Shown here: positions 12,836-38,517 of the stretch, one piece after another
Position numbering within the stretch: the stretch's first letter is position 1
How the letters are laid out: every line of letters begins with the position of its first letter
Assembly: GCA_025435355.1 (NCBI GenBank)
Contig: JANJFQ010000001.1
Span: forward strand, 1 to 61,394
From: Candidatus Methanophagales archaeon
GTDB lineage: Archaea > Halobacteriota > Syntropharchaeia > Alkanophagales > Methanospirareceae
Direction of reading: 5' to 3'
DNA length: 61,394 bases
Program-made: the position numbers and the translations under genes
Notes under the pieces: generated by a model
Seen by the model: the letters and a program-made list of their open reading frames with translations, nothing else
What the model was told of the DNA's origin: nothing
Databases searched by the model: none

Positions 12836-13022
12836 CCTGCTTTCCTTCCTTTTGTATCAAAGACAATATCTTCGCCATTACCATGAAAAGTCCAACTCCT
12901 ATCGCACCGTATAGAAAGCCTGTAAACTGCTCCGATTGTCTCAAAAACACAAATATTGCTGATATCCCTAATACCACACACACCATCATCAGTAGCAATC
13001 CTTTCAGCACCTTTTTATCCAT
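12828..13022 (-). CDS. small 2-TM membrane protein, translationally coupled to the downstream antiporter-like gene
   Basis: 64 aa with two hydrophobic helices. Its stop overlaps the start of 10937..12835 by 8 nt. A relic of its 3' end is retained at 15848..15877. Confidence 0.5.
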   Translation of the reverse strand: MDKKVLKGLLLMMVCVVLGISAIFVFLRQSEQFTGFLYGAIGVGLFMVMAKILSLIQKEGKQDD

Positions 13023-13186
13023 CTTTCTTCTCCATCATCCCCCCTTCCGATGGCTTCATTACAAATTTTATGGTGTATATAAATAAATATAAGTATTTCT
13101 TAATTTTTTCTTTCGGAAGATAAGATTTTTAGATTACAGAAGTATATCTTAACTGAACACATACCCTAAATAAAAAGAGAAAAGAG

Positions 13187-13612
13187 GTGAAAGAAGAAGC
13201 GATGGCGGCGGAATTATTATTAGAAGTTAGGGATGTAATGACCTATCCAGCTATCACTGAAGATGAAGACGCTTCGGTTGCTATAATATCGAAGGACATG
13301 AAATTGTCGAGAATAGGGAGTGTGGTCATAACAAAAGAAGATAAACCCGTAGGGATAATCACTGACCATGACATAGTGGTAAAAGTTATAATGAAGGATA
13401 GAAACCCAAGTAAGGTAAAAGCGGAAGAAATAATGTCCTCCCCTTTGGTGACCATCGAGGCAGATGCATCTCTTATGGGTGCATGCAAACTCTTGGCAGA
13501 GAAGGGCATAAGAAGACTACCTGTGACTGAGGATGATGCGCTCGTGGGCATCGTAAGTGTTAGAAATATACTGACAAGAGAGCCAGAGCATGTAAGAAAA
13601 TATTTATTTTAA
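13187..13612 (+). CDS. CBS-domain pair protein
   Basis: Two CBS repeats ('IGSVVITKEDKPVGIITDHDI', 'IRRLPVTEDDALVGIVSVRNIL'). Paralog of 21518..21910. Confidence 0.8.
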   Translation: MKEEAMAAELLLEVRDVMTYPAITEDEDASVAIISKDMKLSRIGSVVITKEDKPVGIITDHDIVVKVIMKDRNPSKVKAEEIMSSPLVTIEADASLMGACKLLAEKGIRRLPVTEDDALVGIVSVRNILTREPEHVRKYLF

Positions 13613-13713
13613 TCCCGAGGAATTTAGCAATAGGATTCGGTAAATCGTCCAGCAAAAATCAAAAGTTATTAATACTCTAAAACCTTATAAACATAAGGGG
13701 GTGATGTAAAAAA

Positions 13714-13959
13714 ATGTTGTTTATGACGTGCGTGAGAGTCAATCCGGGCATGGTGGAGAACGCGAGAAAATTCGGTGACAGGATACTTAAAGAGCCGCCC
13801 AAGGGCGTCAAGTTCCTGCAGGTTTATCATACGCTGGGTAGGTATGATGCGATATGGATTTACGAGGCGGAAGACGCAAAAGTGATTGAAGATTTCCTTC
13901 ATCAAAGCCGGGATGTCTCAACAACCGAAACCTGGGTTGCGTTTGCAAGGGAGATGTAG
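13714..13959 (+). CDS. GYD-domain protein
   Basis: 81 aa. 'YHTLGRYDAIWIYEAEDAKVIEDF' carries the GRYD signature. Confidence 0.6.
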   Translation: MLFMTCVRVNPGMVENARKFGDRILKEPPKGVKFLQVYHTLGRYDAIWIYEAEDAKVIEDFLHQSRDVSTTETWVAFAREM

Positions 13960-14022
13960 GTAAGGGGTCTGTCGCCAGCCCCCTCCCTTTTTATTTTTTA
14001 AAAACTTGCCTATTGGTTCCGA

Positions 14023-15855
14023 TTACAACCACAGCAGCCCATGCGTCAGATAAATAATCAGATAGAGCGTGAAAAACACGAGTGCCAGCAACACCCCTGT
14101 TCCTATCGCCACTCTCGGCACTTCTCCCGGATACACCTTCTTGAGCTCCTCCAAATCCCGCTCATATCGCATATACGCGGGATTGAAAGGTCTCATTACC
14201 ACTGCACCCACCATAGCCACCATTATTCTTGACGCCGCCGTTGGGTTCCTGCTGAACCATACGAAAGAATCAGCAATTCTAAGCAATCCTTTATCAATGA
14301 AATTCGCAACTGTCACTAATGGCTGCTCGCAGAACCATATAAACCCTCTCCCTGCCTTCCTGTATAGGTGGTCTATATCATACGTTATTCTTTCATGTGG
14401 TGTAAGTACGATTTTCATTATGAAGAACATAAATGCAGTCATTATCAACAATTCCAGCGTGCCTATCGTATGCCCAAGTGCGTATGGATGAAAATGAACA
14501 ACTTCATAAGGTAGTATTCCGTAAAGCAGCTTTGGATACACACCAATAGCAACGCAAAGGAAAGCAGTAACGCTCATTGCGATTAGCATGGGCAGCGGTG
14601 CTTCTTTCGCTTTTATTTCATCATTTCGCTTGAAAAACGTGAAATAAGTGAGTTTTAAGAAAGACAGGAAAGTGCCTACTGAACCCATTATCAAAGCAAG
14701 TGCAAGGATATGCATCCCGTCCAGTTCCGCAGCTTGAATCACCATACTTTTGCTTATGTATCCGTTAAAGCCCATAACGCCTGAAATAGAAAGAGCTGCT
14801 ATCACGCACGTTATCATCGTCACCGGCATCTTCTTCGCTAATCCACCAAGTTCTGTAAGGTTGTTCCTTCCTGTCGCATATATCACTGCACCCATACACA
14901 TAAACAGCAGTGCCTTATACAAAATATGGTTGAAAACGTGTGCGATTCCTCCGTTTATCCCTATATAAGTCCCTATCCCTATACCAGCAACCATGTAGCC
15001 TACCTGACTCACAATATGGTAAGAAAGGAGTTTCCTTACATCGTTTTGCATCAGTGCAAACACAACACCATAGAGGCACATCGCTCCGCCTATGTATGCT
15101 ACCGCCTCTACACCAGGAAAAGTCCTCGCAAGCACATATACGCCCGTCTTTGTCGTATATACAGACAAAAATACAGCTCCTGCTATCGTTGCTTTTGGAT
15201 ATGAATCCGGTAACCAGGTATGCAGTGGAATAAATGCCACGTTCACACCTATTCCGATAAGCATAAGGAGATATCCTAAAATACCTGCTTCATTTATATT
15301 TATAGACGCCACCAGTACAGAACCTGTGTTCATGTAATGTATCAGTATTCCACCAAGAAGGGCACAACCACCAAACAAGTGAAACAGGATATATCGCATC
15401 CCCGCGTTTGTCGCCCTCTCTGTCCGGCTGTACCAGATTAACCCGAGCGAAGAGAAAGCCATTATCTCCCAGAAGATGTACAAAGTGAAGAAATCGCCGG
15501 CAAATACCACACCAAGGGCGCTTCCTAAATATAGCAATCCACATACAAACTCGCCGCTCTCTTTCACTATATTTACTGAATATAATATCGCAGCACCGCC
15601 TATCAGAGCAAATATGTAGCCCATTATAAGGCTCAAACTATCGGCATGCAAGAACGTCAGCTCAAATCCGGGGAGAACTGTAAATCCCCATGTTGTCTGT
15701 GGTTTTATTAAAGCTACACTGATTAACCCAAGCGCAGCTAAGACGATAAGATAAATCTTCCTCCCCTTTCCCTTTCCGAGCAAGGGTATTAATGCAGCTC
15801 CTGCAAGGTAAATAAGAGCAGGAGGCACATTCGGTATGCTACTTATATCAATCAT
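14023..15855 (-). CDS. antiporter-like subunit (PF00361-type), 'C/X-type' with C-terminal helix+TM tail
   Basis: Close paralog of 10937..12835 ('MIDISSIPNVPPALI...', 'LHTWLPDSYPKATIAG'). The tail is 'FSRNPTAASRIMV...RPFNPAYMRYERDLEELKK...IGTGVLLALVFFTLYLIIYLTHGLLWL'. Confidence 0.8.
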   Translation of the reverse strand: MIDISSIPNVPPALIYLAGAALIPLLGKGKGRKIYLIVLAALGLISVALIKPQTTWGFTVLPGFELTFLHADSLSLIMGYIFALIGGAAILYSVNIVKESGEFVCGLLYLGSALGVVFAGDFFTLYIFWEIMAFSSLGLIWYSRTERATNAGMRYILFHLFGGCALLGGILIHYMNTGSVLVASININEAGILGYLLMLIGIGVNVAFIPLHTWLPDSYPKATIAGAVFLSVYTTKTGVYVLARTFPGVEAVAYIGGAMCLYGVVFALMQNDVRKLLSYHIVSQVGYMVAGIGIGTYIGINGGIAHVFNHILYKALLFMCMGAVIYATGRNNLTELGGLAKKMPVTMITCVIAALSISGVMGFNGYISKSMVIQAAELDGMHILALALIMGSVGTFLSFLKLTYFTFFKRNDEIKAKEAPLPMLIAMSVTAFLCVAIGVYPKLLYGILPYEVVHFHPYALGHTIGTLELLIMTAFMFFIMKIVLTPHERITYDIDHLYRKAGRGFIWFCEQPLVTVANFIDKGLLRIADSFVWFSRNPTAASRIMVAMVGAVVMRPFNPAYMRYERDLEELKKVYPGEVPRVAIGTGVLLALVFFTLYLIIYLTHGLLWL

Positions 15856-15904
15856 CCTGCTTACCCTCCTTTTGTATTAGTATCGGGCAACGCTTATCAT
15901 TTAC

Positions 15905-16171
15905 CTAAATCCACACGCCCATATATGTCCAAGAAATAACCAAATATGCCACAGCGAAAGCAAGCGAATAAAACAGCGCAGCCCCTATCGCTAAGGTTCG
16001 GGTATCTCCTATACATTCTTTTGACATTTCTAATCCCTTCGCATAGCCCATGCGAGCAGGACTAAACGGTCTCAGCACCGTCACACCCACTAAGTTTACC
16101 AGTATCTTCGTTGCAAGCGCCGGATTCTTCCCAAAACATCTCCACGAGCCCAAAATTTTTTTTATTCCCAT
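15905..16171 (-). CDS. free-standing homolog of the antiporter C-terminal tail (amphipathic segment + 1 TM)
   Basis: 88 aa. 'GKNPALATKILVNLVGVTVLRPFSPARMGY...LAIGAALFYSLAFAVAYLVISWTYMGVWI' aligns with the last ~90 aa of 14023..15855 and 16507..18315. Confidence 0.6.
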   Translation of the reverse strand: MGIKKILGSWRCFGKNPALATKILVNLVGVTVLRPFSPARMGYAKGLEMSKECIGDTRTLAIGAALFYSLAFAVAYLVISWTYMGVWI

Positions 16172-16204
16172 GTCCTTTCACCCCCTATTTTTCATCACCC
16201 CTTC

Positions 16205-16275
16205 GGGACACCTTCTTCACCTTCGCTTTTTGTTCCCCTTTAGCCACCTTTTTCACTTGTATCACAAGTGTCCCC
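16205..16275. promoter_or_regulatory. conserved leader/operator element: GGGACAC ... GTATC-N4-GTGTCCCC
   Basis: 'GGGACAC' (16205-16211) is the reverse complement of 'GTGTCCC' (16269-16275). 'gtatcacaagtgtcccc' (16259-16275) matches the motif at 18977-18993, 29199-29214 and 41711-41724. Confidence 0.45.
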
Positions 16276-16397
16276 TATACACTATATGTAACATGAGTAT
16301 TAAAAAGGTTTTCGATTATGGCACGTCGTGCCACCGGTGCCACCCGTGTCACCAATGGCACAAAGATAAGAAAAACATTAGCGAGTTCCTATACTTG

Positions 16398-16472
16398 TTT
16401 ACTGCTGAACCTGCCGAAAACACAGAGAGCCTGGAAAATCATTTACTGGATCTCCGCGATCTCGGCGGTAAA
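16398..16472. repeat. MITE-like short interspersed repeat, copy 1 (shorter)
   Basis: 'TTTACTGCTGAAC...GAAAACACAGAGAG...TCTCCGCGATCTCGGCGGTAAA' aligns with 51102..51203. The ends are inverted repeats (TTTACyGCTGA / TCGGCGGTAAA). Confidence 0.5.
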
Positions 16473-16506
16473 CAAATACAAATTTTCCATTGGCTATTGG
16501 CTCCAA

Positions 16507-18315
16507 TTACGCCCATAGCACCCCGTACGTCAGATACATAAACAGGTATAGCGTGAAAAACATGATTACCAGCAGCACGCCTGTTCCAATCGCCACCCTG
16601 TGCACCTCTCCGGGATACAACCTCCTGAGCTCCTCTAAATCTTGCTCATATCGCATATACCCTGGATTAAATGGTTTCAAAAGCACCATGCTTGCCGTAA
16701 GCACCATTATTCGTGAGGCTACTGCCGGGTTCTTGCTGAACCAAACGAAGGAATCAGCAATTCTCAACAGGGTTTTGTCAATGGAATCCGCAAAATTTAA
16801 CAACGGTTTCTCGCAGAACCATATAAATTTCTTCCCCGCTATTCGATAGAACCAGTCGGTATCAAGCGTGATTGTTCGTTCCCCGCGAAGCATCCCTTTC
16901 AGCATCCAAAATGCTAAAAATGTAAACAGAAGTAGTTGACTCATTCCTATTACATGCGATGCGGTGTAAGGAGCATAATCAACTGCATAAGGAAGCATCT
17001 TGTAAAGGGCTTGTGGATACACGCCGATAAATACGCAAAGAAAAGCAGTAACACCCATCGCTGCGAGCATATTTTTAGGTGGCTCTCTTGCCTCAACGAC
17101 CGACTTCTTTCTCCCAAACCATGTAAGATATGGGAGTTTTAGACATGTGACGAGGAATGTTCCTATTGCAGCTCCTTCGAGCAACAACCATACAATGGGC
17201 AGATGTGCCGCCGCTTCCACAACCATTGTTTTACTCACAAATCCACTGAACAGAGGGAATCCGGAAATGGAGAAAGCGCCAATCATGTAAAGCCCGAAAG
17301 TGAGGGGCATGTATTTGTACATACCGCCCAATTCAGTGAACTTACTTCTCCCCGTCATCTCAAGCACTGCACCTGCACCCATGAATAGCAACGCCGTATA
17401 AAGAATGCAGCTTAAAGCATGTGCAGTTGAACCATTTATTGCCATCCCGATTCCTATTCCAACACCTGCTACCATGTATCCTCCCTGACCGATGATAGAA
17501 TAGGCGAGAAGTCTTCTTATATCATTCTCAAGCACAGCGAAAATAACTCCATACACTGCCATTATCGCTCCCAACCATATCAAAAGCTCAACACCCGGGA
17601 AACCCCGGATCAACACATATATCGCACTTTTTGTCGTGAACGCGGTCAAAAATACGGCTCCAGTAACCGTGGCTTCCGGGTAAGCATCAGACAACCAGGC
17701 ATGCAATGGAGGAACCGCGGCGTTTATAATAAAACCAACGAATATAAAGTAAGAGGACAAGTAACCCCAACCCGTTCCCCAACTAAAAGGGTTAAAAGCA
17801 ATGGAGCCTGTGTTTTGCATGTGTAAAATAATGCCTGCTAATAGGCATATACCACCAAAAATATGCACCATGATATATCGGAATCCCGCTTCAGAAGATG
17901 CCTTCGTCTTGCGATACCAGATAAGGAAAAGCGAAGAAAAAGCCATCACTTCCCAAAATAAGTACAGAGTAAAAAGGTCCCCTGCGAAAACTATTCCCAG
18001 TGCGCTTCCAACGTAGAGGAAGGCAGATATATGTTGCCCGTCCTCTTTTACATGCAGTGCATAAAGAGTGGCACAAAAAGCTACAATAACAAATATATAA
18101 CCGAAAACCAAACTCAATTGGTCAACCCTGCCAAAAACGAGCTCATATTCCAAAAGAGGAATACTCCAGAATACACCTTCCGACATATACAGAAGGTCTA
18201 TAAGCGCCGCTATCGGCAACAGAAGCAGATATATCTTTTTCCAGTTTCCTTTTAGGACCGGTATTAGAAGAGCGCCTAAGATAAATATAAGTCCCGGATG
18301 CAGCCACTCAATCAT
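16507..18315 (-). CDS. antiporter-like subunit (PF00361-type), 'C-type' with C-terminal helix+TM tail
   Basis: 'LHAWLSDAYPEATVTGAVF', 'LLAYSIIGQGGYMVAG', 'GGMYKYMP'. The tail is 'FSKNPAVASRIMV...KPFNPGYMRYEQDLEELRR...IGTGVLLVIMFFTLYLFMYLTYGVLWA'. The start is set at MIEWLHPGLIF by analogy with 36409..38229 (the ORF track starts at 18366). Confidence 0.8.
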   Translation of the reverse strand: MIEWLHPGLIFILGALLIPVLKGNWKKIYLLLLPIAALIDLLYMSEGVFWSIPLLEYELVFGRVDQLSLVFGYIFVIVAFCATLYALHVKEDGQHISAFLYVGSALGIVFAGDLFTLYLFWEVMAFSSLFLIWYRKTKASSEAGFRYIMVHIFGGICLLAGIILHMQNTGSIAFNPFSWGTGWGYLSSYFIFVGFIINAAVPPLHAWLSDAYPEATVTGAVFLTAFTTKSAIYVLIRGFPGVELLIWLGAIMAVYGVIFAVLENDIRRLLAYSIIGQGGYMVAGVGIGIGMAINGSTAHALSCILYTALLFMGAGAVLEMTGRSKFTELGGMYKYMPLTFGLYMIGAFSISGFPLFSGFVSKTMVVEAAAHLPIVWLLLEGAAIGTFLVTCLKLPYLTWFGRKKSVVEAREPPKNMLAAMGVTAFLCVFIGVYPQALYKMLPYAVDYAPYTASHVIGMSQLLLFTFLAFWMLKGMLRGERTITLDTDWFYRIAGKKFIWFCEKPLLNFADSIDKTLLRIADSFVWFSKNPAVASRIMVLTASMVLLKPFNPGYMRYEQDLEELRRLYPGEVHRVAIGTGVLLVIMFFTLYLFMYLTYGVLWA

Positions 18316-18538
18316 AATAATCCTCCCCCCTTTGAAGCCAGTGATGCCCCAGGGCTTTTGAGACAACGATGATCAGAATACAGCCAATAAACCCACATAT
18401 TGCACTAAATCCCGGGATTGCCTGCCATAAGAAGGCAGCGTGAGCATGCTCGTGGAAATTAACGAGCACACCAGCTAATACAGTCACCGCAAGGCATACA
18501 TAAAGCATACAAACCAAATACTTCTTTTCTATCCCCAC
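18308..18538 (-). CDS. small His-rich 2-TM membrane protein (family of 3 in this window)
   Basis: 76 aa. 'NFHEHAHAAFLWQAIPGFSAICGFIGCILIIVVSKALGHHWLQRGEDYYD'. Paralogs at 25857..26087 and 38278..38514. Its stop overlaps the start of the downstream C-type gene. Confidence 0.65.
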   Translation of the reverse strand: MGIEKKYLVCMLYVCLAVTVLAGVLVNFHEHAHAAFLWQAIPGFSAICGFIGCILIIVVSKALGHHWLQRGEDYYD

Positions 18539-18618
18539 TTCATACGACCTCCAAATTTACAACTAACCTGTTATTCGCAACCTCTGCAAACCTTTTCGCC
18601 TCCGCTTTTTATTTTTAC

Positions 18619-18894
18619 CTAAACCCACGCCTTCCCATACGTCAGATAAAGGAACAAATACATCATGCTGAAGGCAAGCGACATCATTACCACAGTCCAA
18701 ATCGTCAAGCCTTGGAGCTGTTCTTCGGGGCATCTACCCTTCATCGCTTCTTCTAAATCACGCTCATAGCGCACATACGTATGATTAAATGGTTTCAGCA
18801 GTGTCGCTCCTACCACGTCTATCAATATCCTTGTTGCAAGTGCCGGATTTTTGCTAAGACATCTCCACGGGCCAAAAATATTTTTTATTCTCAT
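18619..18894 (-). CDS. free-standing homolog of the antiporter C-terminal tail (amphipathic segment + 1 TM)
   Basis: 91 aa. 'SKNPALATRILIDVVGATLLKPFNHTYVRYERDLEEA...LAFSMMYLFLYLTYGKAWV' aligns with the fused tails. Confidence 0.6.
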   Translation of the reverse strand: MRIKNIFGPWRCLSKNPALATRILIDVVGATLLKPFNHTYVRYERDLEEAMKGRCPEEQLQGLTIWTVVMMSLAFSMMYLFLYLTYGKAWV

Positions 18895-18931
18895 TTCCTT
18901 TTTCCTTCACCTCCTACTTTTATCCTTCTGA

Positions 18932-18993
18932 GGACACCGCCTTACTTGCACCTCGCTTTTCTCCCCCGTGACTTTGGTGTCACCAGTGTCCCC
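18932..18993. promoter_or_regulatory. conserved leader/operator element: GGACAC ... GTGTC-N4-GTGTCCCC
   Basis: 'ggacac' (18932-18937) is the reverse complement of 'gtgtcc' (18986-18991). 'gtgtcaccagtgtcccc' spans 18977-18993. The region is homologous to 16205..16275. Confidence 0.45.
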
Positions 18994-19054
18994 AATTAAT
19001 TATATGTCACAGGTGCCTTATAAAACTTTCGGTTTCGCGCAAAGAAACATCGAG

Positions 19055-19083
19055 GATGTAAAAATCGAAATGTATTTATATAC
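19055..19083 (+). promoter_or_regulatory. putative archaeal promoter (TATA box region) of 19125..20063, conserved with 29276..29304
   Basis: 'GATGTAAAAATCGAAATGTATTTATATAC' versus 'GATGTAAAAACCGAAATATATTTATACAC' upstream of the paralog. The region just before the ATG is also shared ('TCAGATAAAGATGGGC'). Confidence 0.5.
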
Positions 19084-19124
19084 CCTCTATAAATAGGTGA
19101 TAATTGTAGAGTCTTCAGATAAAG

Positions 19125-20063
19125 ATGGGCGTAAAAGAATCCTTAGAAAAAGCGATAATGGATAAAAGAACGCTGGTTGTGGTAATAGTTATAGCGATTT
19201 TGTGGCGGACGGCTATAAGCCTTGACAAAGAGATAGCGCTTTGGGAAAGTATGTGCTCAGGTGTTGCTCTTTTCATCATGGGCTGGACTCTCTTCGGTTA
19301 CCTGTATCACATGTCCCTGAAAGAGACGAGCTGGTTAATTTCGAATAAGATGTTTCAGGGGATTGCCGTTAGCCTATGCACCTTAAATGCTTACGTTCTT
19401 GTTTACTATGGGATGAGATGGTATAGATTAATGAGTGAAACGGAAGCTTATATGCCAATGGATTACCTTCTTAGAAATATGAGATACGCCATGTTAGTGC
19501 TGGCTTATTGTGGCATAATATGGTCGGCGGGTTACCTGAAAAAGATGCACGATAATTATATGCTGATAACCAAAGAAATTCCAGAGATGCATAAAGGAGT
19601 CATAAGAGACGCATTATTCAAAATTATAACTGATGAGCGAACGGTGATAGTGATAATAGGCATAGCGTTTTTATGGCGAACCGCTGTAAGCCTTGACAAA
19701 GAGATAATGCTTTGGGAAAGTATGTGCTCAGGTGTTGCTCTTTTCATCATGGGCTGGGTTCTCTTCGGTTACATAAGTTCATTGACCCTGAGGGTGACCA
19801 GACCAAGCATGATGAAGATCTACCAGGGGATTGCCATTGCTCTATGCGCTATAAACATTTATTCTATTGTTTACTACGGAATGAGATGGTATAGAGTGAT
19901 AAGCATGGGAGAGGAAGTCTTAATGCCGCTGGATTTTCTCTTTAGAGACGTAAGATATTTTATGTTAGTGATATTTTATTGCACGGCAATAGTGCTATCG
20001 AAGTATTTAGAAAAAGCATCTGAGGAGTGTGAGTTCCTGATTAAGAAAGAATCGGAGGCTTAA
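19125..20063 (+). CDS. polytopic membrane protein of unknown family with internal tandem duplication (2 x ~155 aa)
   Basis: Both halves share 'ILWRTAxSLDKEIxLWESMCSGVALFIMGWxLFGY ... YQGIAxxLCxxNxYxxVYYGMRWYR ... RYxMLVxxYC'. An 85-nt stretch (19217-19301) is nearly identical to 19688-19772. Confidence 0.65.
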   Translation: MGVKESLEKAIMDKRTLVVVIVIAILWRTAISLDKEIALWESMCSGVALFIMGWTLFGYLYHMSLKETSWLISNKMFQGIAVSLCTLNAYVLVYYGMRWYRLMSETEAYMPMDYLLRNMRYAMLVLAYCGIIWSAGYLKKMHDNYMLITKEIPEMHKGVIRDALFKIITDERTVIVIIGIAFLWRTAVSLDKEIMLWESMCSGVALFIMGWVLFGYISSLTLRVTRPSMMKIYQGIAIALCAINIYSIVYYGMRWYRVISMGEEVLMPLDFLFRDVRYFMLVIFYCTAIVLSKYLEKASEECEFLIKKESEA

Positions 20064-20128
20064 AATAGAGAAATCCCAATAATTACCAAATCCCAAAAAT
20101 TTGGTAGTATTTGTAGTATTGGTATGTA

Positions 20129-21088
20129 TTGGGGTTTTCTAAGATGAGCATGAGAGCATTCACATTTAAGGCACTAACAGATGAACGGATATTAATAGTA
20201 ATAATAGGTGTAGCGTTTTTATGGCGAACCGTCGTACGCCTCGACAGTAAGATAGCACTTTGGGAATGTATCTGCTCCGGTATTACTCTTCTCATAATGG
20301 GCTGGCTTCTCTTCGTTTACCTATATTCCATGTCTTTAAAACCGACACGCTGGCCGGTATCGAATAAGATTTATCACGGTATTGCCCTTAGCCTTCTCGT
20401 TATAAATATTTATGTGGTTATTTACTATGGGATGAGATGGTTTGGATTACCGCTTGTAGAAGTTTCCATGCCGCGTGATTACATTTTCAGAGATGTAAGA
20501 TATGTGATGTTCGTGACGTTTTATTGTGCGGTAATATGGTCGACCCGGTATCTCAGAGGGATGCACGAGAATTACAGACTACTAATCAAAGAAAGACCGA
20601 AGAAGTCTGCAAAGAGCATGAAAAAATTTTTATTCAGAGTAATAACGAATGAACGAACATTAATAGCGATAATAGTAGCAGCGATTCTGTGGCGAATAGC
20701 CATAAGCTTTGACTACATTATAACCTTTTGGGAAAGTACGTGCTCATGTATTACTCTGCTCATGATAGGCTGGTTTCTCTTCGGTTACATAAGTGCATTA
20801 ACCGTGAAAGTGAAGGCAACGTTAGAATTAGCTAAAGTCTGCTATGGGCTTGCCCTTGGTCTATGCGCTGTAAACATTTATGCTATTTTTTACTATGGTA
20901 TGAGATGGTATGAAGTGATAGGCATAGTCATGGGAAATGTGCCGGGAATTTATGTGCCTCAGCCACTGGATTTGGTCTTTAGTGGTGTAAGGTATGTCAC
21001 GTTAGTGATATTTTATTGCACAGCAATAGTGTTATCAAAGTATTTAGAAAAGGCATACGAGGACTATACGGTGCCGGTCAAAATGTAA
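20129..21088 (+). CDS. polytopic membrane protein, same internally duplicated family
   Basis: 'FLWRTVVRLDSKIALWECICSG...YYGMRWF' and 'ILWRIAISFDYIITFWESTCSC...YYGMRWY'. It lies in tandem after 19125..20063. Confidence 0.65.
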   Translation: MGFSKMSMRAFTFKALTDERILIVIIGVAFLWRTVVRLDSKIALWECICSGITLLIMGWLLFVYLYSMSLKPTRWPVSNKIYHGIALSLLVINIYVVIYYGMRWFGLPLVEVSMPRDYIFRDVRYVMFVTFYCAVIWSTRYLRGMHENYRLLIKERPKKSAKSMKKFLFRVITNERTLIAIIVAAILWRIAISFDYIITFWESTCSCITLLMIGWFLFGYISALTVKVKATLELAKVCYGLALGLCAVNIYAIFYYGMRWYEVIGIVMGNVPGIYVPQPLDLVFSGVRYVTLVIFYCTAIVLSKYLEKAYEDYTVPVKM

Positions 21089-21137
21089 AATGCAAAACGA
21101 GGTTCTTTTGGTAAAGCTTTTCTTTCTAAGAAAAGGT

Positions 21138-21386
21138 TTAAATGCGCAATATGCCTATGTTGTAAAGCAGCGACAATATATATGCCATCACGCAGAAAGC
21201 AAGAAAGGTAATCGCCAGGAAAAGGCCTACATAAAATCCTAAACTCTCCACCTCTACTCCAGGGCAATGCGCCTTTATTGAGTCCACCGCTCTCGGTTCA
21301 TACGAACCTAAACTCAGCGTGAGCCTCATTGTGTCCGCTGGACATTTAACAAAACATTTCAATGCAGTAATGAATTTACTCTCCAT
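21138..21386 (-). CDS. small Cys-containing protein with C-terminal TM anchor (family of 2)
   Basis: 82 aa. 'KCFVKCPADTMRL...HCPGVEVESLGFYVGLFLAITFLAFCVMAY'. Paralog at 34594..34860. Confidence 0.55.
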   Translation of the reverse strand: MESKFITALKCFVKCPADTMRLTLSLGSYEPRAVDSIKAHCPGVEVESLGFYVGLFLAITFLAFCVMAYILSLLYNIGILRI

Positions 21387-21517
21387 CCCCTTTCACCTGT
21401 CCTCATATTCGTAACTTATGACTTATAAATATTTCGATATTTATGATATGTATATAAATGAGATATAGAGAAAAAAACGAAAAAATAATATATTTAAATC
21501 TCTAAGAGAAAAGAAAG

Positions 21518-21910
21518 ATGAAAGTAAGAGAAATAATGAGCCGTCCAATCATCGCTGAAGATGAAGACACGTTGGTCACTAAAATAGCGGAAGATATGGA
21601 CGAGTTGGGAATTGGGAGTGTAGTGATAACAAAGGAAAATAAACCTGCGGGAATTATTACTGAGCGCGACATAGCATTAAAAGTTCTATTAAAGAATAGG
21701 TGGGTAAGCGAGGTGAAAGCAAAAGAAATAATGGCATTCCCTTTGGTCACCATCGAGCCGGAAGCATCAATAGACGAAGCGTGCCGGCTCGCAGCGAGGA
21801 AGCGCATAAAAAGACTGCCGGTGGTTGAAAATGGGATGCTCATAGGCATTGTAAGCATTCGGGACCTATTGACGAGGAAGCCAGAGTATGTAAGAGAATT
21901 CTATTTCTAA
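21518..21910 (+). CDS. CBS-domain pair protein
   Basis: Paralog of 13187..13612 ('GIGSVVITKENKPAGIITERDI', 'IKRLPVVENGMLIGIVSIRDLL'). Confidence 0.8.
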   Translation: MKVREIMSRPIIAEDEDTLVTKIAEDMDELGIGSVVITKENKPAGIITERDIALKVLLKNRWVSEVKAKEIMAFPLVTIEPEASIDEACRLAARKRIKRLPVVENGMLIGIVSIRDLLTRKPEYVREFYF

Positions 21911-22018
21911 AGTTGGAGGAATATGCTTATACAGATTTAAAGAAAGGTTTTTTAATTATACAAAGTCTTAAATAAAGATGAAACGAAAAAGTGCCTCAGT
22001 TGATAACATGATGTTGCT

Positions 22019-22300
22019 ATGAACAAAAAAAAAACGGTTGTAAAAAATGATAAAATGGCTGATAAAGAGCCTGGGGGAAAAGAGAAAAAGATTGTCGAGC
22101 TTATAGCTTCCGTCCAGAGAGCGGGAGATGAAAGAGGAAAGCGGATTTATTTCGACAGTAAGAGCATAGAAGAGATAAGAGAGAAATGCGGCGATGACTT
22201 CTTCTTGCTCAATGAAAGGACTTTACTTGTCTTCGTTGACCCCGCGGAGGAGAAGATCACGCTCACTTCGCTCAAGGGCGTTTACAAGAAGTACCTTTAA
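22019..22300 (+). CDS. hypothetical Lys-rich protein (uncertain; 3' end overlaps an antisense ORF)
   Basis: 93-aa ORF with an ATG start. No motif recognised. Confidence 0.3.
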   Translation: MNKKKTVVKNDKMADKEPGGKEKKIVELIASVQRAGDERGKRIYFDSKSIEEIREKCGDDFFLLNERTLLVFVDPAEEKITLTSLKGVYKKYL

Positions 22301-22393
22301 TTTCTCCGCTTGCTCCTTCGTTAATTCGATGTCCACCCTGCCAAAAGTGATGATTATGTTGCTGCCCACCATTACCTGCACGTCTATCTCCAT
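22223..22393 (-). CDS. hypothetical small protein downstream of the KaiC-like gene (uncertain)
   Basis: 'MEIDVQVMVGSNIIITFGRVDIELTKEQAEKLKVLLVNALE...'. The tracked ORF (to 22414) overlaps the KaiC-like stop by 8 nt. It is antisense to the end of 22019..22300. Confidence 0.3.
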   Translation of the reverse strand: MEIDVQVMVGSNIIITFGRVDIELTKEQAEKLKVLLVNALERSERDLLLRGVNEDK

Positions 22394-22406
22394 ATTTCTT
22401 CTCCCC

Positions 22407-23795
22407 CTATACAATAGCAGTAAGCTTTATCTTGAGACTATCATTACTAACAAAGTTCTCCAAGCAATGCAGCTTGGTATCAGGGCGATTGCAATAAAGG
22501 ATAACACTTCTATCGAGCACGGTCAACTTCAGGTGCACTGACGACAGGTGAATCAGCTCACTGCTCAGCACAAGCTCTGGAGTCACTCCAAATACACCTA
22601 CATTGTCCACCTCCCTTGTATCTACCATCAACTGGGATAACATCCCCACCATTTCACCTACTTTCCCTCTCTCCTTCAGTTGGTAGGGATACACCAGCGT
22701 ATCCGCCCCGATAATTACCATGACCGGCGGCTCCAAATCAGAAATGAAGTCCCGGAATTTGAAAATGTCCTCATTCATCAAGTCTCCTTTCAATATTTTC
22801 ACATTATCTCTCTCTCCTTCCTCCTTTTCTGGACCTATCTCGAAGACCGTGAAGAACTTAGTATAATCCTCTTCGCTTACAAAAGGCAATATCCCTCTTC
22901 TCAATCTCCTCTCATCCCACCCACAACACGGGATACATACACAATGATTCTCTTGCTGGATACTGTTTATAATCATGTGTGCGATAATGGACTGGTAACC
23001 CAAAATGGACATGTCATTCCCGGCTTCTATAATATTAAAGCTTCCCTTTCTGAATCCCCCACCCAGGATTTTATCTAACTCTATTATCCCGGTAGACAGG
23101 TAAGTGCGGGTATTTGGCACAACCGCTACTCTTCTCGGCTTCTCTATTCTCCGCCGCTGGTAAGGTTTTAAATAGGTAAATCTACCCCCATCTAAGCTGA
23201 ATGCGTATTTCGGCTGGTCTATTCGAACACCCCTTAATTTTTCTATCTCTAATTCCCTTGCCCTCCGGTACTCCATTGTTAGGCGCCTGAGCGTTACTAT
23301 CCCATCCACCATGTAATCAAGCGAAGAAATCCCAAGACTTTCTGACACGAGTATCAATTTCATTTCGACATGCCTTGCTAATTCCGTTATTGCCGCTTCC
23401 AGTGCTTCAGTCTTTTCCTTATCCATCTGAGATGTTATCGCTTCCCAGCTATCAATTACAACGGTAGCGGGTTTTTCTATTTTACCCAACCTCGTGTAAA
23501 GAATATCGGGGAAAGATTGCACTCCAGGAATTATATCCGAAGATACGTAGAACTTCGTCGCATCTATCAGGTTCAGTGGGCTGACACATTCGTCCAGCCA
23601 GGGGAATTGGTCATAAAGGGCGTGCGTGGAGACCCTGGCTGAAAGATAAACGGCGTTAGCTTCACCCAATTCGCCAAGCATCTCAAGTGCGAATATTGTT
23701 TTACCCGTGCCCGGCTCCCCCTTTATCAGCAGGGAATAACCCCTTCCCACAGACTGCGCCACTACCAACTCAGGAGGTATTTTTGATTCCATCAT
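22407..23795 (-). CDS. KaiC/GvpD/RAD55-type RecA-superfamily ATPase, two-domain, second domain without Walker A
   Basis: Domain 1 has 'LLIKGEPGTGKTIFALEML' and 'TVVIDSWEAI'. Domain 2 ('GIIELDKILGGGFRKGSFNIIEAGNDMS') has no GxxGxGKT. Paralog of 33151..34554. Confidence 0.75.
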   Translation of the reverse strand: MMESKIPPELVVAQSVGRGYSLLIKGEPGTGKTIFALEMLGELGEANAVYLSARVSTHALYDQFPWLDECVSPLNLIDATKFYVSSDIIPGVQSFPDILYTRLGKIEKPATVVIDSWEAITSQMDKEKTEALEAAITELARHVEMKLILVSESLGISSLDYMVDGIVTLRRLTMEYRRARELEIEKLRGVRIDQPKYAFSLDGGRFTYLKPYQRRRIEKPRRVAVVPNTRTYLSTGIIELDKILGGGFRKGSFNIIEAGNDMSILGYQSIIAHMIINSIQQENHCVCIPCCGWDERRLRRGILPFVSEEDYTKFFTVFEIGPEKEEGERDNVKILKGDLMNEDIFKFRDFISDLEPPVMVIIGADTLVYPYQLKERGKVGEMVGMLSQLMVDTREVDNVGVFGVTPELVLSSELIHLSSVHLKLTVLDRSVILYCNRPDTKLHCLENFVSNDSLKIKLTAIV

Positions 23796-23995
23796 GATTA
23801 TAATAGTAAATAGTACATTTATATAAAAGTAGGTAGCGTCCGTTGGTCAAATGTTTCCTCAAACGCTTTTTTAAATTTCTGATATGAAAAGGCTCTTTGG
23901 TGATTTCAATGGAAGAAGCGAGGAAGTTTCGGGTAACGAGAACAGCAGATAACCAAAATCCTCTCTGGCAGACCGTCGCAAACCCGCCCATGTAG

Positions 23996-25864
23996 TCATT
24001 TTATAAGCCACCCATGTATAAACATAGCTATCAAATACAAAGCGATAAAGATAAGCACCAGTAGCATTGCATTCCCTATGTTCAATCTTACCATTGGTTC
24101 TTCTGCCGGTTGCCTCTTCTTCACCTCCTCCAAATCTCGCTCATATTCCGCAGCCCTTTCTGCAGTAGCAATAGGTTTCTCCACCTTTAGCCTTGCTTCT
24201 TCTCCCTTTATTCTCAACGCAGCCATTGGATTCCTGCTGACCCAGACAAAAAACCCTGCCATTCTCATTACATTATGGTCAATGTAGTTTGCAAACGCCA
24301 TCAGCGGTCCTTCGCAGAACCATATAACTCTTTTCCCCGTTATCCGGTAGAACCAGTCGGTATCAAGCGTAATTGTCGGCGTACCATGAAGCATTCCCCT
24401 TAGCAGCCAAAACGCTACAAATGTGAACAGAAGGAGCTGGCTCATTGCTACCACATGACCCGCCGCAAAGGGTTCATAATGAACTGGATACGGAAGCATG
24501 TTGTAAAGTATTTTTGGATACACACCGAGAAGTGTGCACAAAAACGCGGTTATGCCCATTGCCGCGAGCATATTCTTAGGTGGCTCTCTTGCCTCGCATA
24601 CTGGCTCCTCTCTTGCAAACCACGCGCCCCAGGGAAGTTTTAGACCTGTATGCAGGAAGGTTCCTATTGAGGCGCCTTCGAGCATCAGCCATATAATTGA
24701 ATAATGCCACATCGCAGAGGCAGTAACAATCATTGTCTTACTCACGAATCCGTTGAATAGAGGAAATCCTGAAATCGAAAATGCACCTATCATGTAAAGC
24801 CAAAAAGTGATGGGCATGTATTTGTATATGCCACCCAGTTCGGTCAGTTTGCTTCTTCCCGTTACCTCTATTATTGCACCCATGCCCATGAAAAGTAACG
24901 CCTTATACAAAATATGACAGAAAGCATGTGCAGCCGCACCGTTTAGCGCCATTTCTCCAGCCGCAGTGCCAAAAACACCCATTCCCACTCCACACACCAT
25001 GTATCCTACCTGGGAGATGATGTGATAAGCTAAAAGTCTTCTTATATCATTCTCAAGCACTGCGTAAACAACCCCGTACACCGCCATTATCGCTCCTAAC
25101 CATATCAGAATCTCAACACCCGGGAAACCCCTTATCAGCACGTATATCGCACTCTTTGTGGTAAATGCGGTTAGAAACACCGCACCGGTAACAGTCGCTT
25201 CTGGATACGCATCAGCCAGCCACGCGTGTAAAGGTGGCACGGCGGCATTTATGATAAAGGCGGTAAACACGAGGTAAGAAGCCAGATACTCACTCCCCAG
25301 CCCCCATCCAAAAGCTTCAAAGGCGATGGAACCCGTGTTTTGCAGTTGTAAAACTACTCCCCCTAACAGACATATACCACCGAAAAAGTGCACCATGATG
25401 TATCGGAACCCCGCACCATAAGCTGCTTTTGTCCTTCGATACCAGATGAGGAATAGCGAAGACCATGCCATCACCTCCCAGAAGAAGAACAGAACAAAAA
25501 GGTCACCTGCGAAAACCACGCCCAGCGTGCTCCCAACGTAGAAGAAAGCGGCTACATGCTGCCAATTCTCCTTTATGTGAATTGCATAAAGAATCATGCA
25601 AAAGGATGCAATCACAAATATATATGCAAAAACCATGCTCAGCCGGTCTATTCTGCCGAAGGTAAGTTCATATCCTAAGAAAGAAAGGAACCATGTTTTC
25701 CCTTCTGACAGAAGCACGCCTCTCGACATGAGCAGAAGGTTTATAAATGCTACTGCCGGGAGTAAGAGCAGATATGCCTGTTTCACTCTCATTTTTCCCC
25801 GTAAAACGGGTATTAGCAGTGACCCAAAGATGTATATGAGTCCCGGGTGAAACCACTCAATCAT
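23996..25864 (-). CDS. antiporter-like subunit (PF00361-type), 'C-type' with C-terminal helix+TM tail
   Basis: 'LHAWLADAYPEATVTGAVF', 'LLAYHIISQVGYMVCG', 'GGIYKYMP'. The tail is 'SRNPMAALRI...YERDLEEVKKRQ...IGNAMLLVLIFIALYLIAMFIHGWLIK'. The start is set at MIEWFHPGLIY (ORF track 25915). Confidence 0.8.
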   Translation of the reverse strand: MIEWFHPGLIYIFGSLLIPVLRGKMRVKQAYLLLLPAVAFINLLLMSRGVLLSEGKTWFLSFLGYELTFGRIDRLSMVFAYIFVIASFCMILYAIHIKENWQHVAAFFYVGSTLGVVFAGDLFVLFFFWEVMAWSSLFLIWYRRTKAAYGAGFRYIMVHFFGGICLLGGVVLQLQNTGSIAFEAFGWGLGSEYLASYLVFTAFIINAAVPPLHAWLADAYPEATVTGAVFLTAFTTKSAIYVLIRGFPGVEILIWLGAIMAVYGVVYAVLENDIRRLLAYHIISQVGYMVCGVGMGVFGTAAGEMALNGAAAHAFCHILYKALLFMGMGAIIEVTGRSKLTELGGIYKYMPITFWLYMIGAFSISGFPLFNGFVSKTMIVTASAMWHYSIIWLMLEGASIGTFLHTGLKLPWGAWFAREEPVCEAREPPKNMLAAMGITAFLCTLLGVYPKILYNMLPYPVHYEPFAAGHVVAMSQLLLFTFVAFWLLRGMLHGTPTITLDTDWFYRITGKRVIWFCEGPLMAFANYIDHNVMRMAGFFVWVSRNPMAALRIKGEEARLKVEKPIATAERAAEYERDLEEVKKRQPAEEPMVRLNIGNAMLLVLIFIALYLIAMFIHGWLIK

Positions 25865-26087
25865 AGTAATCCTCCTCCTTCTGAAGCCAGTGATGTCCAA
25901 GCGCTTTTGACGCAACGATGATGATGATACAGCCGATAAAGCCGTAGATTGCGCTGAAAACGGGTAATTTCTCCCACCAGAAATGCGGATGGAGAAGGTG
26001 TAAATGATAAACGAGAACGCCTGCTAATACACCCGCCGCGAGACTGACATAAAGCATCAAAAACAAATGCCTCATCGTTATTTTCAT
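25857..26087 (-). CDS. small His-rich 2-TM membrane protein
   Basis: 'MKITMRHLFLMLYVSLAAGVLAGVLVYHLHLLHPHFWWEKLPVFSAIYGFIGCIIIIVASKALGHHWLQKEEDYYD'. The start is chosen to match the paralog at 38278..38514 (ORF track 26105). Confidence 0.65.
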   Translation of the reverse strand: MKITMRHLFLMLYVSLAAGVLAGVLVYHLHLLHPHFWWEKLPVFSAIYGFIGCIIIIVASKALGHHWLQKEEDYYD

Positions 26088-26097
26088 CTTTGTCTCT

Positions 26098-27615
26098 TTA
26101 CACACCTCCTAAATTGCTGACTGCCATCTCTGCAAGATTTAAGATTACGTCTGTAACAGGATTTGGGAAACAAAAAATGATGGCGAAGATTGCGGTTATT
26201 GTTAAGGGAACGACCATGAACATAGAAGATTCTTTTATTTTTGGTTTTCCATCGCTCAAACCAGATTCTGATCCTTCCGACTTGCCAAAGAACGCGGTAT
26301 ATATAATAGGGAAAAAATAAACGACATCGAGCAGGGAACTTATCAGGATAACAGCTAAGAAAATCAGCTCGCCGGCTTCCAATGTTCCCAGACAAAGGAA
26401 CCATTTACTTACGAATCCACACGCCGGTGGCGCTCCGCACATTCCAAGCGCACCCACGGTAAATGCAAACATTGTTACTGGCATCGTTCGTCCTATGCCG
26501 CCCATCTCGCTTATGTTCCTCTTTCCCGATGCTACCATTATGGAACCCGCACACATAAAGAGGGTTATCTTCATGAATCCATGAAAGGGGATGTGAATCA
26601 TTGCCCCTGTTATACCCATGGGACCTAATAACGCCACACCGAAGATGATGTAAGACAACTGGCTTATCGTGGAATACGCAAGTCTTCTTTTCAGGTTGTC
26701 CTGTGCAATCGCAAACAGAGAAGCGACAATCATCGTAAAAGATGCTAAACAAGCGAGTATCACGCCAAGACCTAGTTCGCTCATCAAATCCACGCCATAT
26801 ATGTAACACACCAGCCGCACAATTCCAAATACGCCCGCCTTTACCACTGCTACCGCATGTAAAAGCGCACTTACAGGCGTTGGTGCCGCCATTGCAGTGG
26901 GAAGCCACGAGTGGAAAGGCATCCACGCTGCTTTCATGAACCCCAGCAGGAATAACATGAACAATACCATCAGTGCCGCTCGTGATGCTTCAGAAGCAAG
27001 GTTTGGTATTCCTCCACTCACAAAATCCGTCGTTCCTGCAAAATGGTAGGTTAAAACCACAGCAGCTAAGAAGAAACAGCCTGAGGAAAGCAGATACGCT
27101 AAATATTTACGACCTGCAAATAGCGCTTCCGGTGTCTGGTCATGCGCCACTAACGGATACGTTGAGACCGTTAATATCTCATAAAAGACGAACATCGTGA
27201 GCAGGTTCCCGGAGAGAGCCACACCCACCGCACCGAAAATGGCGAAAGCGAAGCAGAAGTAGTATCGTGTTTGGGCATGCTCGTGCAGCGACCTCATATA
27301 TCCGATGGAGTAAGAGGATACTAGAATCCACAAGAAAGAAGAAGTAATGGCGAAAATAAGCCCAAAGGCATCTACTTCGAAGCCAAAATCAACAGCCGGA
27401 AATGCAGTGAAGAACGTGTATTTGATGACGCCTCCCCCGATAATTGCGGGTATCATGGAGATGATGATAAGAAATTGCATTATGCTTGCGAACATCGTCC
27501 AGCTCTCTCTTATGTTCGGTCGCTTGCCAGATAATACTATAAAGATAGAGGCAATTGCAGGGCATAAGATTGCTAACACCGGTCTATACGATATAGATAT
27601 TAATTCCTCTATCAT
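26098..27615 (-). CDS. antiporter-like subunit, 'B-type' (MrpA N-terminal/NuoL-like or second MrpD-like)
   Basis: 'VDAFGLIFAITSSFLWILVSSYSIGYM', 'FYEILTVSTYPLV', 'FHSWLPTAMAAPTPVSALLHAVAVVKAG', 'LAYSTISQLSYI'. Confidence 0.8.
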   Translation of the reverse strand: MIEELISISYRPVLAILCPAIASIFIVLSGKRPNIRESWTMFASIMQFLIIISMIPAIIGGGVIKYTFFTAFPAVDFGFEVDAFGLIFAITSSFLWILVSSYSIGYMRSLHEHAQTRYYFCFAFAIFGAVGVALSGNLLTMFVFYEILTVSTYPLVAHDQTPEALFAGRKYLAYLLSSGCFFLAAVVLTYHFAGTTDFVSGGIPNLASEASRAALMVLFMLFLLGFMKAAWMPFHSWLPTAMAAPTPVSALLHAVAVVKAGVFGIVRLVCYIYGVDLMSELGLGVILACLASFTMIVASLFAIAQDNLKRRLAYSTISQLSYIIFGVALLGPMGITGAMIHIPFHGFMKITLFMCAGSIMVASGKRNISEMGGIGRTMPVTMFAFTVGALGMCGAPPACGFVSKWFLCLGTLEAGELIFLAVILISSLLDVVYFFPIIYTAFFGKSEGSESGLSDGKPKIKESSMFMVVPLTITAIFAIIFCFPNPVTDVILNLAEMAVSNLGGV

Positions 27616-29147: not shown

Positions 29148-29170
29148 CAGAATTGTTTATAGGAAACAAA

Positions 29171-29214
29171 ATATATAAAGATATCCCTTTTTCTCCACGG
29201 GACACCGGTGACAC
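29171..29214 (-). promoter_or_regulatory. putative BRE/TATA promoter plus upstream conserved operator (GTGTC-ACCG-GTGTCCC, core CACCGGTG)
   Basis: The minus strand reads 'GTGTCACCGGTGTCCCGTGGAGAAAAAGGGATATCTTTATATAT'. About 40 of 47 nt are shared with 41680..41728, upstream of the paralogous operon. Confidence 0.55.
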
Positions 29215-29275
29215 GCTGAAAACTGCAAGAAATTTCTCTTGCTTTTTGCGTTACACCCCAGCTCGAAATGGCGAA

Positions 29276-29304
29276 GATGTAAAAACCGAAATATATTTAT
29301 ACAC
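29276..29304 (+). promoter_or_regulatory. putative promoter (TATA region) of 29354..30349, conserved with 19055..19083
   Basis: See 19055..19083. Confidence 0.5.
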
Positions 29305-29353
29305 TCATTCAAATTAAAATAATAGCCGGAAGGATAGGAGTTTTCAGATAAAG

Positions 29354-30349: not shown

Positions 30350-30376
30350 TTGCTCAATATCGATTTGCTTGTGATG

Positions 30377-33046: not shown

Positions 33047-33150
33047 AGCCTCTACAATGCTTCATAACTGTTTTTTTCTTTTAATTGCAAGAATACTGCA
33101 GGAAACGTTTTAAAATAAGGGATAGCTATACAAATACATGTAAATTATCA

Positions 33151-34554: not shown

Positions 34555-34593
34555 AAGCGATTCATAAATAAAAAACCTTTCGGTTTTTTGAAT

Positions 34594-34860: not shown

Positions 34861-34915
34861 CTCCTTTACCTCCTTTTATACTTATGATCTATAAATATTT
34901 CGTTATTTATCGCCA

Positions 34916-38229: not shown

Positions 38230-38277
38230 TATCTATCACCTCCAGAGCGCACGGCGCTCATTTTCAAGGTGCATTTT

Positions 38278-38514: not shown

Positions 38515-38517
38515 TTT

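Follow-up and report, generated by a model that had tools for sequence, protein, structure and literature searches.

Transporters of the ClC, CNNM and MgtE types show an organisation in which CBS domains are fused or linked to the membrane protein. The small subunits of Mrp (CPA3) antiporters and of complex I are small polytopic proteins encoded beside genes of the PF00361 family (MrpD/NuoL-type, antiporter-like), and Fluc/FEX and small multidrug resistance (SMR)-type proteins are dimers of units with four transmembrane (TM) helices; in Fluc and EmrE the two halves are antiparallel. Here we describe TM8, a family of membrane proteins with eight TM helices encoded by three genes (A, B and C) in a stretch of 61,394 nucleotides, hereafter the window, from a Candidatus Methanophagales archaeon (assembly GCA_025435355.1, contig JANJFQ010000001.1); the source of the window is a complete 61,394-bp NCBI contig. 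The organism belongs to ANME-1, the archaea which perform much of marine anaerobic methane oxidation and have no representative in pure culture. Judged against Pfam, NCBIfam, PDB, BFVD and the searchable literature, TM8 is an undescribed protein family.

TM8 is like the CBS-regulated transporters (MgtE, CorB/CNNM, ClC and OpuA-type) in that a membrane protein is tethered to, or encoded beside, cytoplasmic CBS pairs, and in one TM8 clade the CBS domains are at the C-terminus, as in ClC and CNNM. However, its membrane domain resembles theirs neither in sequence nor in fold (no match to MgtE, CNNM/DUF21 or Voltage_CLC is found in Pfam, NCBIfam or PDB), and its CBS domains are usually in a separate polypeptide, which has an extra ~170-aa beta-rich domain, so that the analogy is one of organisation and not of membership. 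With the small subunits of Mrp and complex I, TM8 shares the small polytopic form, the location beside PF00361 genes and the intramembrane charged residues, but its genes are divergent from the PF00361 operon and not within it, the protein shows a repeat of 2 x 4 TM helices, and hhalign finds no relationship. As in Fluc/FEX and SMR-type dimers, the four-TM unit of TM8 occurs both stand-alone (~150 aa) and in tandem, which suggests by analogy that the dimer may be the functional unit; unlike Fluc and EmrE, the modules of TM8 would be parallel, and Pfam scans show no sequence similarity to them.

The three TM8 genes of the window are as follows:

19125..20063, + strand: TM8 paralogue A, 312 aa, opening the A-B operon; its modules cover approximately residues 1-157 and 158-312.
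20144..21088, + strand: TM8 paralogue B, 314 aa from the ATG at 20144; second gene of the A-B operon.
29354..30349, + strand: TM8 paralogue C, 331 aa, encoded alone and transcribed divergently from the PF00361 operon at 23996..29147.

A previous sequence-only reading of the window had described three open reading frames (ORFs) encoding polytopic proteins with six modules in total. This description is correct and the three ORFs are present, with only the start of B displaced: the ORF listing extends B to a TTG at 20129 (319 aa), and since the public gene call (P0113) gives a 314-aa product starting with MSMRAF, the ATG at 20144 is most likely the start codon and the TTG is unlikely. A, B and C are real paralogous genes, which match one another over their full length with 48-54% identity (BLASTP). 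Off-diagonal BLASTP matches are also found: the second half of A (residues 160-308) matches the first half of B (residues 8-155) with 54% identity over ~150 aa (E 4e-52), and the second half of C (residues 170-330) matches the first half of B (residues 5-163) with an E value of 1e-54. These matches, and the alignment of the six ~155-aa modules, which show 37.6-59% pairwise identity, bear out the two repeats per protein proposed by that reading. The modules have in common the landmarks LWR, D, WE(S/C), (C)SG, GW, N-x-Y, YYGMRW, PxDxxFRxxRY and YC; the repeat motifs quoted previously are thus reproduced overall, with small deviations in the first module of A (DKRT and FQGIA), the first module of C (YYSMRW and QMD) and the second module of B (CYGLA and FSGVRY). 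The N-terminal modules of the three proteins are 49-50% identical to one another and 38-47% identical to the C-terminal modules, and the internal duplication is therefore older than the split between A, B and C. In an alignment of 71 family sequences, 21 columns are invariant and ~70 columns are at least 90% conserved; in each module the first helix contains an Arg and the beginning of the second a Glu, both of them invariant, namely Arg28 and Arg185 together with Glu41 and Glu198.

The confident AlphaFold2 (AF2) model obtained from this alignment (mean predicted local distance difference test, pLDDT, 80.2; predicted template modelling score, pTM, 0.80) contains eight long helices, with a short amphipathic helix preceding each module; each module has four helices, which gives two 4-TM modules per protein, and TM8 shows no large extramembrane domain. 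The count of Lys plus Arg is 7.1 in the inter-module linker and 2.9 in the N-terminal segment and favours an N-in/C-in orientation. Because of this distribution and of the C-terminal CBS fusion described below, the N-terminus, the linker and the C-terminus of TM8 would be cytoplasmic. From the even number of helices, the cytoplasmic linker and the cytoplasmic CBS fusion, the two modules are predicted to be parallel, forming a covalent pseudo-dimer. With this topology, the model would show in the outer leaflet or vestibule an invariant or near-invariant polar set containing W27-R28, D34, E41-S42, S45-G46, Y94-Y95, R98-W99, D113, R117 and R120, with their module-2 counterparts, and a mid-membrane layer containing W54, N88 and Y128-C129; the Arg/Asp/Tyr/Trp cluster is then placed where helices 3 and 4 end in the outer leaflet.

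Scans of the single proteins and of all 71 members of the alignment give nothing above the gathering threshold in Pfam. The best Pfam match is DUF7555 (PF24432), with 20.4 bits against a cut-off of 28 and a best E value of 5.6e-4; it is the sole recurrent weak match, limited to seven of the 71 members and to ~27 residues of one helix, no stretch of it passes alone, and it was treated as a compositional TM-helix match and not as kinship. In NCBIfam no family passes, the best being TIGR03580 with 16.5 bits against a cut-off of 301, and among the PDB sequences there is no match by phmmer or by profile. For the full 8-TM model, a fold match was defined as a Foldseek E value of 1e-3 or below or a TM-score of at least 0.5; the best E value is 0.14 against PDB, with TM-scores not above 0.35, and 0.36 against BFVD. 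No confident match to a characterised family is therefore found in the sequence libraries or with Foldseek in PDB and BFVD, and TM8 stays unassigned, as it had been called from the letters of the window. PADLOC shows no match for A, B, C or for the neighbouring small82, p93 and CBS proteins, and only weak P-loop-level matches for the KaiC-like ATPases; an anti-phage defence reading was rejected on this outcome. Kinship with PF00361 was also rejected, since hhalign gives a probability of 0.16% between the module profile and the 12 PF00361 proteins of the window and Pfam gives no match, as was kinship with MrpB/C/E/F/G, the His-rich miniproteins, small82 or the 91-aa ORF of the window (hhalign probabilities all of 8.8% or less). 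By these profile comparisons, TM8 is not a diverged piece of the antiporter system. In the literature on Mrp and antiporter-like genes of ANME-1, no description of the locus was found.

A word-indexed search among 5.8 billion proteins found 247 relatives, all of them "hypothetical" and named as Methanophagales/ANME-1, as Candidatus Syntrophoarchaeum, or with unspecific and probably mis-binned labels; an exhaustive phmmer search with C among 1.84 billion 50%-identity representatives gives only 17 clusters. The scan of one genome per GTDB species gives 74 loci, almost all from ANME-1: one is labelled Syntrophoarchaeum, one Argoarchaeum, and a few are under the implausible bin labels Desulfobacteria, Bacteroidales, Nitrosotalea and Bathyarchaeia. 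Since the copy labelled Argoarchaeum and an ANME-1 copy have 72% identity, the non-ANME-1 labels need caution. Typical ANME-1 versions of the locus are found in bins assigned to Desulfobacteria, Bacteroidales, Bathyarchaeia, Nitrosotalea or WOR-3 (L012, L037, L050, L051 and P0166), and such labels are probably contamination from ANME-1 and partner consortia. The TM8 family is essentially confined to ANME-1/Methanophagales and Syntrophoarchaeum-type relatives.

Stand-alone single-module homologues of 148-169 aa (P0124, P0126, P0128, P0152 and others) are also present and keep the invariant W-R, D, E-S, S-G, G-W, Y and W positions; the search with a single-module profile gives 22 proteins, all unannotated. 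A 154-aa homologue is located in an operon DUF2111-TM4-CBS(262)-CBS(141) in metagenome-assembled genomes of ANME-1 from AMOR, and P0128 is followed by a Roadblock/LC7 gene. The 148-aa P0126 overlaps by 8 nt, on three contigs, a gene encoding a 187-aa degenerate KaiC-like protein (Pfam DUF7504 2e-14, KaiC 1.5e-6), which shows no pairwise similarity to the KaiC-like ATPases of the window and has only superfamily-level Pfam matches in common with them. The 148-aa members lie on short contigs (L081-L083 and L084-L085), and in one of these contig sets the single-module gene is translationally coupled to a gene encoding a KaiC-like DUF7504/DUF835-like protein without Walker A.

TM8 is also linked to CBS domains. 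In two loci, L013 (11202-13538) and L054 (2068-4422), the B-type gene is in frame with the gene of a ~475-aa CBS protein (CBS475), and the products have 778 and 784 aa. Within the fusion, identity is 67% to B of the window for residues 1-315 and 72% to the stand-alone CBS protein of L014 for residues 319-777. Three more fusions of 776-778 aa are found in different assemblies (P0158-P0160) and are 85-90% identical to one another; the fusion, seen in four independent assemblies, is therefore one event retained in one ANME-1 clade and not an assembly artefact. The fusion argues for a physical contact between TM8 and the Bateman module. A CBS gene is located within 5 kb downstream of A in 15 of 21 loci, often as a ~475-aa four-CBS gene directly after B, so that a covalent or adjacent-gene association of CBS with TM8 is found in the fusion, in these A-type loci and in the operon of the single-module homologue. 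The AF2 model of the fusion shows a pLDDT of 65 and a pTM of 0.48, with a pLDDT of ~90 in the TM part; Foldseek matches its CBS part to MJ1225, a four-CBS protein that binds nucleotides (E 1.7e-5), and only the CBS and beta domains find Foldseek matches. The beta-rich domain of ~170 aa is N-terminal to the four CBS domains, both in the ~475-aa partner and in the fusion, and in the weak AF2 model it shows only jelly-roll-like Foldseek matches (viral capsid and tail-spike, E ~2e-3 to 8e-3). The CBS (Bateman) proteins, including the fusion with B, and the KaiC/GvpD-like ATPases are the most direct partners of TM8, and the sequence-only reading did not contain them.

For the comparison of gene order, ORFs were called in the 74 loci and the window and labelled with hidden Markov models derived from the proteins of the window. 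In 24 of 28 species-level loci, the C-type gene and a PF00361 operon are transcribed divergently, with a gap of 61-438 bp in 23 loci and of 1,065 bp in one, and two more C-type genes face a His-rich miniprotein heading such an operon. In all the loci with enough sequence (16/16), a PF00361 gene is found within 5 kb upstream of the C-type gene; an association of TM8 with PF00361 in other genomes, on which the previous proposal depended, is thus clearly present. Downstream of C-type genes are a convergent gene encoding a KaiC/GvpD-like ATPase (18/19 loci) and small82, which encodes a protein of 82 aa (16/19), and these two genes close a gene string PF00361-PF00361-small82-KaiC. A-type genes are followed by B in 37 of 39 loci, and further downstream of A-B are a convergent small82 (17/21), then a CBS pair, p93, encoding a 93-aa protein, and a KaiC-like ATPase. 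Upstream of A-type genes, PF00361 is present within 5 kb in 15 of 20 loci, usually separated from A by an operon with a PAS-histidine kinase, a response regulator, two EarA genes and a tail ORF, the latter being a paralogue of the C-terminal tail of long PF00361 proteins. In L002 (5652-9304) and L003 (6416-9799), the PAS-HisKA kinase, the response regulator and two EarA-family (PF07381) regulators are in an operon with a tail ORF and a 606-aa PF00361 gene, divergent from A-B, an arrangement found in several ANME-1 genomes. The window does not contain the kinase, regulator and EarA genes and shows a compact version: A-B-small82-CBS130-p93-KaiC, with the operon of tail ORF, miniprotein and PF00361 directly divergent from A. 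Both A and C are divergent from PF00361-containing operons in the window, as had been noticed. The loci contain 209 PF00361 genes in 955 kb, and the 61-kb window contains 12, an exceptional density. These data support a putative conserved module formed by TM8, a Bateman/CBS protein, a small tail-anchored protein and a KaiC-like ATPase, located amid stand-alone antiporter-like operons and having control regions in common with them.

The control regions of A and C contain the following elements, the last two being given without strand:

19060..19084, + strand: B recognition element (BRE)/TATA promoter driving the A-B operon (AAAAATCGAAATGTATTTATATACC), conserved across genomes and located ~40-65 nt before the ATG.
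29281..29304, + strand: BRE/TATA of C (AAAAACCGAAATATATTTATACAC), conserved across genomes.
18977..18990: element GTGTCACCAGTGTC, a palindrome-centred candidate operator between the 91-aa ORF/PF00361 operon and A.
29201..29214: a second copy of this element, oppositely oriented (GACACCGGTGACAC, core CACCGGTG), in the gap between C and the PF00361 operon.

The shared upstream promoter region proposed for A and C is real: both genes show a near-consensus archaeal BRE/TATA, AAAAA(T/C)CGAAAT(G/A)TATTTATA, and an identical leader, TTCAGATAAAGATGGGC. In other genomes this BRE/TATA is found upstream of 31 of 42 A-type and 24 of 30 C-type genes and of none of 44 B-type genes, so A and B form an operon. 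The motif GTGTC-N4-GTGTC, to which the sequence-only reading had drawn attention, occurs exactly twice in the window (18977..18990, +; 29201..29214, -) against 0.05 expected. Its literal form is absent from the five other loci L001-L005 and was rejected as a family-wide signal; it is just one local spelling of a palindromic element, ACACCGGTGNCAC, which is conserved upstream of TM8 genes. The relaxed palindrome ACAC[CT]N?[GA]GTGNCAC has 11 matches in 955 kb, against ~1 by chance (a rough estimate): nine of them precede the start of an A- or C-type gene by 55-203 nt, and the remaining two precede PF00361 operons by ~120-140 nt. The palindrome is a good candidate for an operator that would co-regulate the divergent units. 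The functional linkage with the antiporter-like system that had been proposed is thus supported for the C-type genes, by their conserved synteny and the shared cis-element, and is looser for A-B, according to the 15 of 20 loci mentioned above.

The reading we favour, with some hesitation, predicts that TM8 is an ion-conducting pseudo-dimer, gated by nucleotides through CBS domains, in an ion or energy circuit of the PF00361 proteins. In this view TM8 would act either as a channel or as a small pore of the secondary-transporter type, with A and B assembling into a hetero-oligomer, and C and the half-size homologues into homo-oligomers. Bateman (CBS) modules that sense nucleotides, and perhaps the KaiC-like ATPase as well, would dock on the cytoplasmic face of TM8 and gate it by energy state. 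The protein would be expressed from a bidirectional control region common to stand-alone MrpD/NuoL-type operons and would act in the same circuit of ion homeostasis or energy coupling as these operons. Ion conduction is favoured because of the half-size and full-size dimer architecture, the invariant intramembrane Arg/Glu/Asn of each module, the strong promoters, the several paralogues per genome and the covalent CBS fusion. Several points weigh against it: no similarity of TM8 to channels or transporters was found, and the ion-conducting character is deduced only from the conserved intramembrane charged and polar residues and from the analogy with CBS transporters; the synteny with PF00361 may in part be due to the very dense packing of PF00361 genes in this super-locus; the B-CBS fusion is a single evolutionary event, and the soluble part of its AF2 model is too poor to show CBS docking; and the degenerate KaiC-like partner of P0126 has no pairwise similarity to the window ATPases. 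An extension of this reading, in which TM8, CBS, the KaiC/GvpD-like ATPase, small82 and MrpD/NuoL-type modules would form one membrane machine in which CBS/KaiC attached to the TM8 pseudo-dimer would couple adenylate or ATP status to ion translocation by the antiporter-like modules, is quite unlikely; if true, the machine would amount to a relative of Mrp that senses energy or is coupled to ATP and has a coupling subunit of novel fold, specific to syntrophic alkane- and methane-oxidising archaea.

The immediate divergence of C-type genes from PF00361 in most loci, and the presence of PF00361 in every locus with 5 kb of upstream sequence, would also agree with an accessory subunit which docks laterally on MrpD/NuoL-type modules, together with the His-rich miniproteins and small tail-anchored proteins, and supplies the entry or coupling element given in canonical Mrp by MrpA-C/B/C/E/F/G. 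The adjacent PF00361 operons show no Mrp small subunits, the canonical set being at 44955..47994, and the palindrome also precedes PF00361 operons for which no TM8 gene is visible. However, TM8 has no homology to Mrp/complex-I small subunits (hhalign <9%) or to PF00361 and is never in one transcription unit with PF00361, single-module homologues occur without PF00361 neighbours, a two-component system is often located between A-B and PF00361, and the type of PF00361 operon beside C varies, so this role seems rather improbable. Unlikely, too, is a non-translocating membrane sensor or scaffold, in which a membrane or extracellular cue passing through CBS, KaiC/GvpD-like proteins and sometimes the PAS-histidine kinase/response regulator/EarA set would control the antiporter-like operons; the steady association with regulatory-type proteins (CBS, KaiC/GvpD-like, Roadblock/LC7, and the kinase-regulator-EarA set in L002 and L003), the lack of a large extramembrane domain and the clustering of conserved residues at the outer face agree with it, but three paralogues per genome with near-consensus strong promoters point rather to abundant transport proteins than to low-copy sensors, the invariant intramembrane Arg/Glu/Asn in every module are more typical of transport proteins, and apart from CBS no recognisable signalling output domain is fused. 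The Asp/Glu/Arg/Tyr clusters at one membrane face could instead be catalytic, in an unrelated membrane enzyme, or TM8 could be a non-ionic transporter (e.g., handling lipids, cofactors or quinones), with an accidental PF00361 synteny: conservation extends to the entire island with its unrelated genes, the island may move as one unit, and some copies are under non-ANME-1 bin labels, such as that of Argoarchaeum. We consider this very unlikely, since no enzyme family is matched by sequence or fold, and since the divergent arrangement and the cis-element are kept across species with TM8 proteins of just 45-55% identity, an argument that the arrangement is under selection.

The genes of the window that accompany TM8 are as follows:

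16507..18894, - strand: operon divergent from A, with a 91-aa ORF, a 76-aa His-rich miniprotein and a 619-aa PF00361 protein.
18619..18894, - strand: 91-aa ORF, immediate divergent neighbour of A and paralogue of the C-terminal tail of long PF00361 proteins.
15905..16171, - strand: 88-aa ORF, likewise paralogous to the tail of ~610-640 aa PF00361 proteins.
18308..18538 (76 aa), 25857..26105 (82 aa) and 38278..38514, - strand: His-rich membrane miniproteins of ~76-82 aa.
23996..29147, - strand: PF00361 operon divergent from C, with 511-aa, 505-aa and 639-aa antiporter-like proteins and an 82-aa His-rich miniprotein.
21138..21386, - strand: small82, 82 aa, convergent with the A-B operon.
34594..34860, - strand: small82 paralogue, 56% identical to that at 21138..21386, following a PF00361 pair.
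21518..21910, + strand: CBS-pair protein of 130 aa, with a Pfam CBS match through the family profile.
22019..22300, + strand: p93, a 93-aa soluble protein, part of the conserved cluster.
22407..23795, - strand: KaiC/GvpD-like double-domain P-loop ATPase, 462 aa (Pfam GvpD_P-loop 1.1e-17 and KaiC 2.9e-16; NCBIfam KaiC).
33151..34554, - strand: second KaiC/GvpD-like ATPase, at the 3' end of a long Mrp-like/PF00361 string and convergent with C.

Over 78 aa, the 91-aa ORF shares 46% identity with residues 543-618 of the 619-aa PF00361 protein, and its family (tail91) shows 26 matches in many loci; these ORFs may be free-standing copies of the tail domain or remnants. A 163-aa ORF at 16050..16541 (+), without Pfam match, is located between two opposite-strand PF00361 genes and overlaps the region of the 88-aa tail-like ORF. 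The His-rich miniproteins contain HEHAH or HLHLLHPH motifs and a conserved C-terminal ALGHHWLQ..EDYYD, show 19 matches across loci, and each is encoded immediately before a long PRK12668-type PF00361 gene, with a slight overlap. The small82 proteins, with 68 matches across loci and no known family, show an N-terminal soluble part with Cys residues (KCFxxCPA...HCP) and one C-terminal TM helix. The 130-aa CBS protein is orthologous to the final CBS pair in the ~475-aa protein and matches the C-terminus of the fusion. Between C and the second KaiC-like ATPase, only the window shows a gene encoding an 889-aa GH38 alpha-mannosidase-like protein (30377..33046, -), which looks like a local insertion because C and KaiC are elsewhere adjacent or separated by other genes. 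Within 10937..47994 (-), the window contains the canonical-looking Mrp small-subunit set (44955..47994), followed on the same strand by four MrpD-like genes, the miniprotein at 38278..38514, two PF00361 genes, small82 and the KaiC/GvpD-like ATPase; the closing of such an Mrp-like string by a KaiC-like ATPase is a conserved feature, found in other ANME-1 loci as well.

TM8 is a concrete lead into the membrane energetics of ANME-1, and A/B, C, the CBS partner and the palindromic operator are targets for expression, reconstitution and structural work. Should TM8 conduct ions or couple these modules, archaeal bioenergetics would gain a new component, and the protein would represent a new membrane fold; if it is merely a regulator, it would still belong to a conserved and testable gene circuit in an environmentally important lineage.

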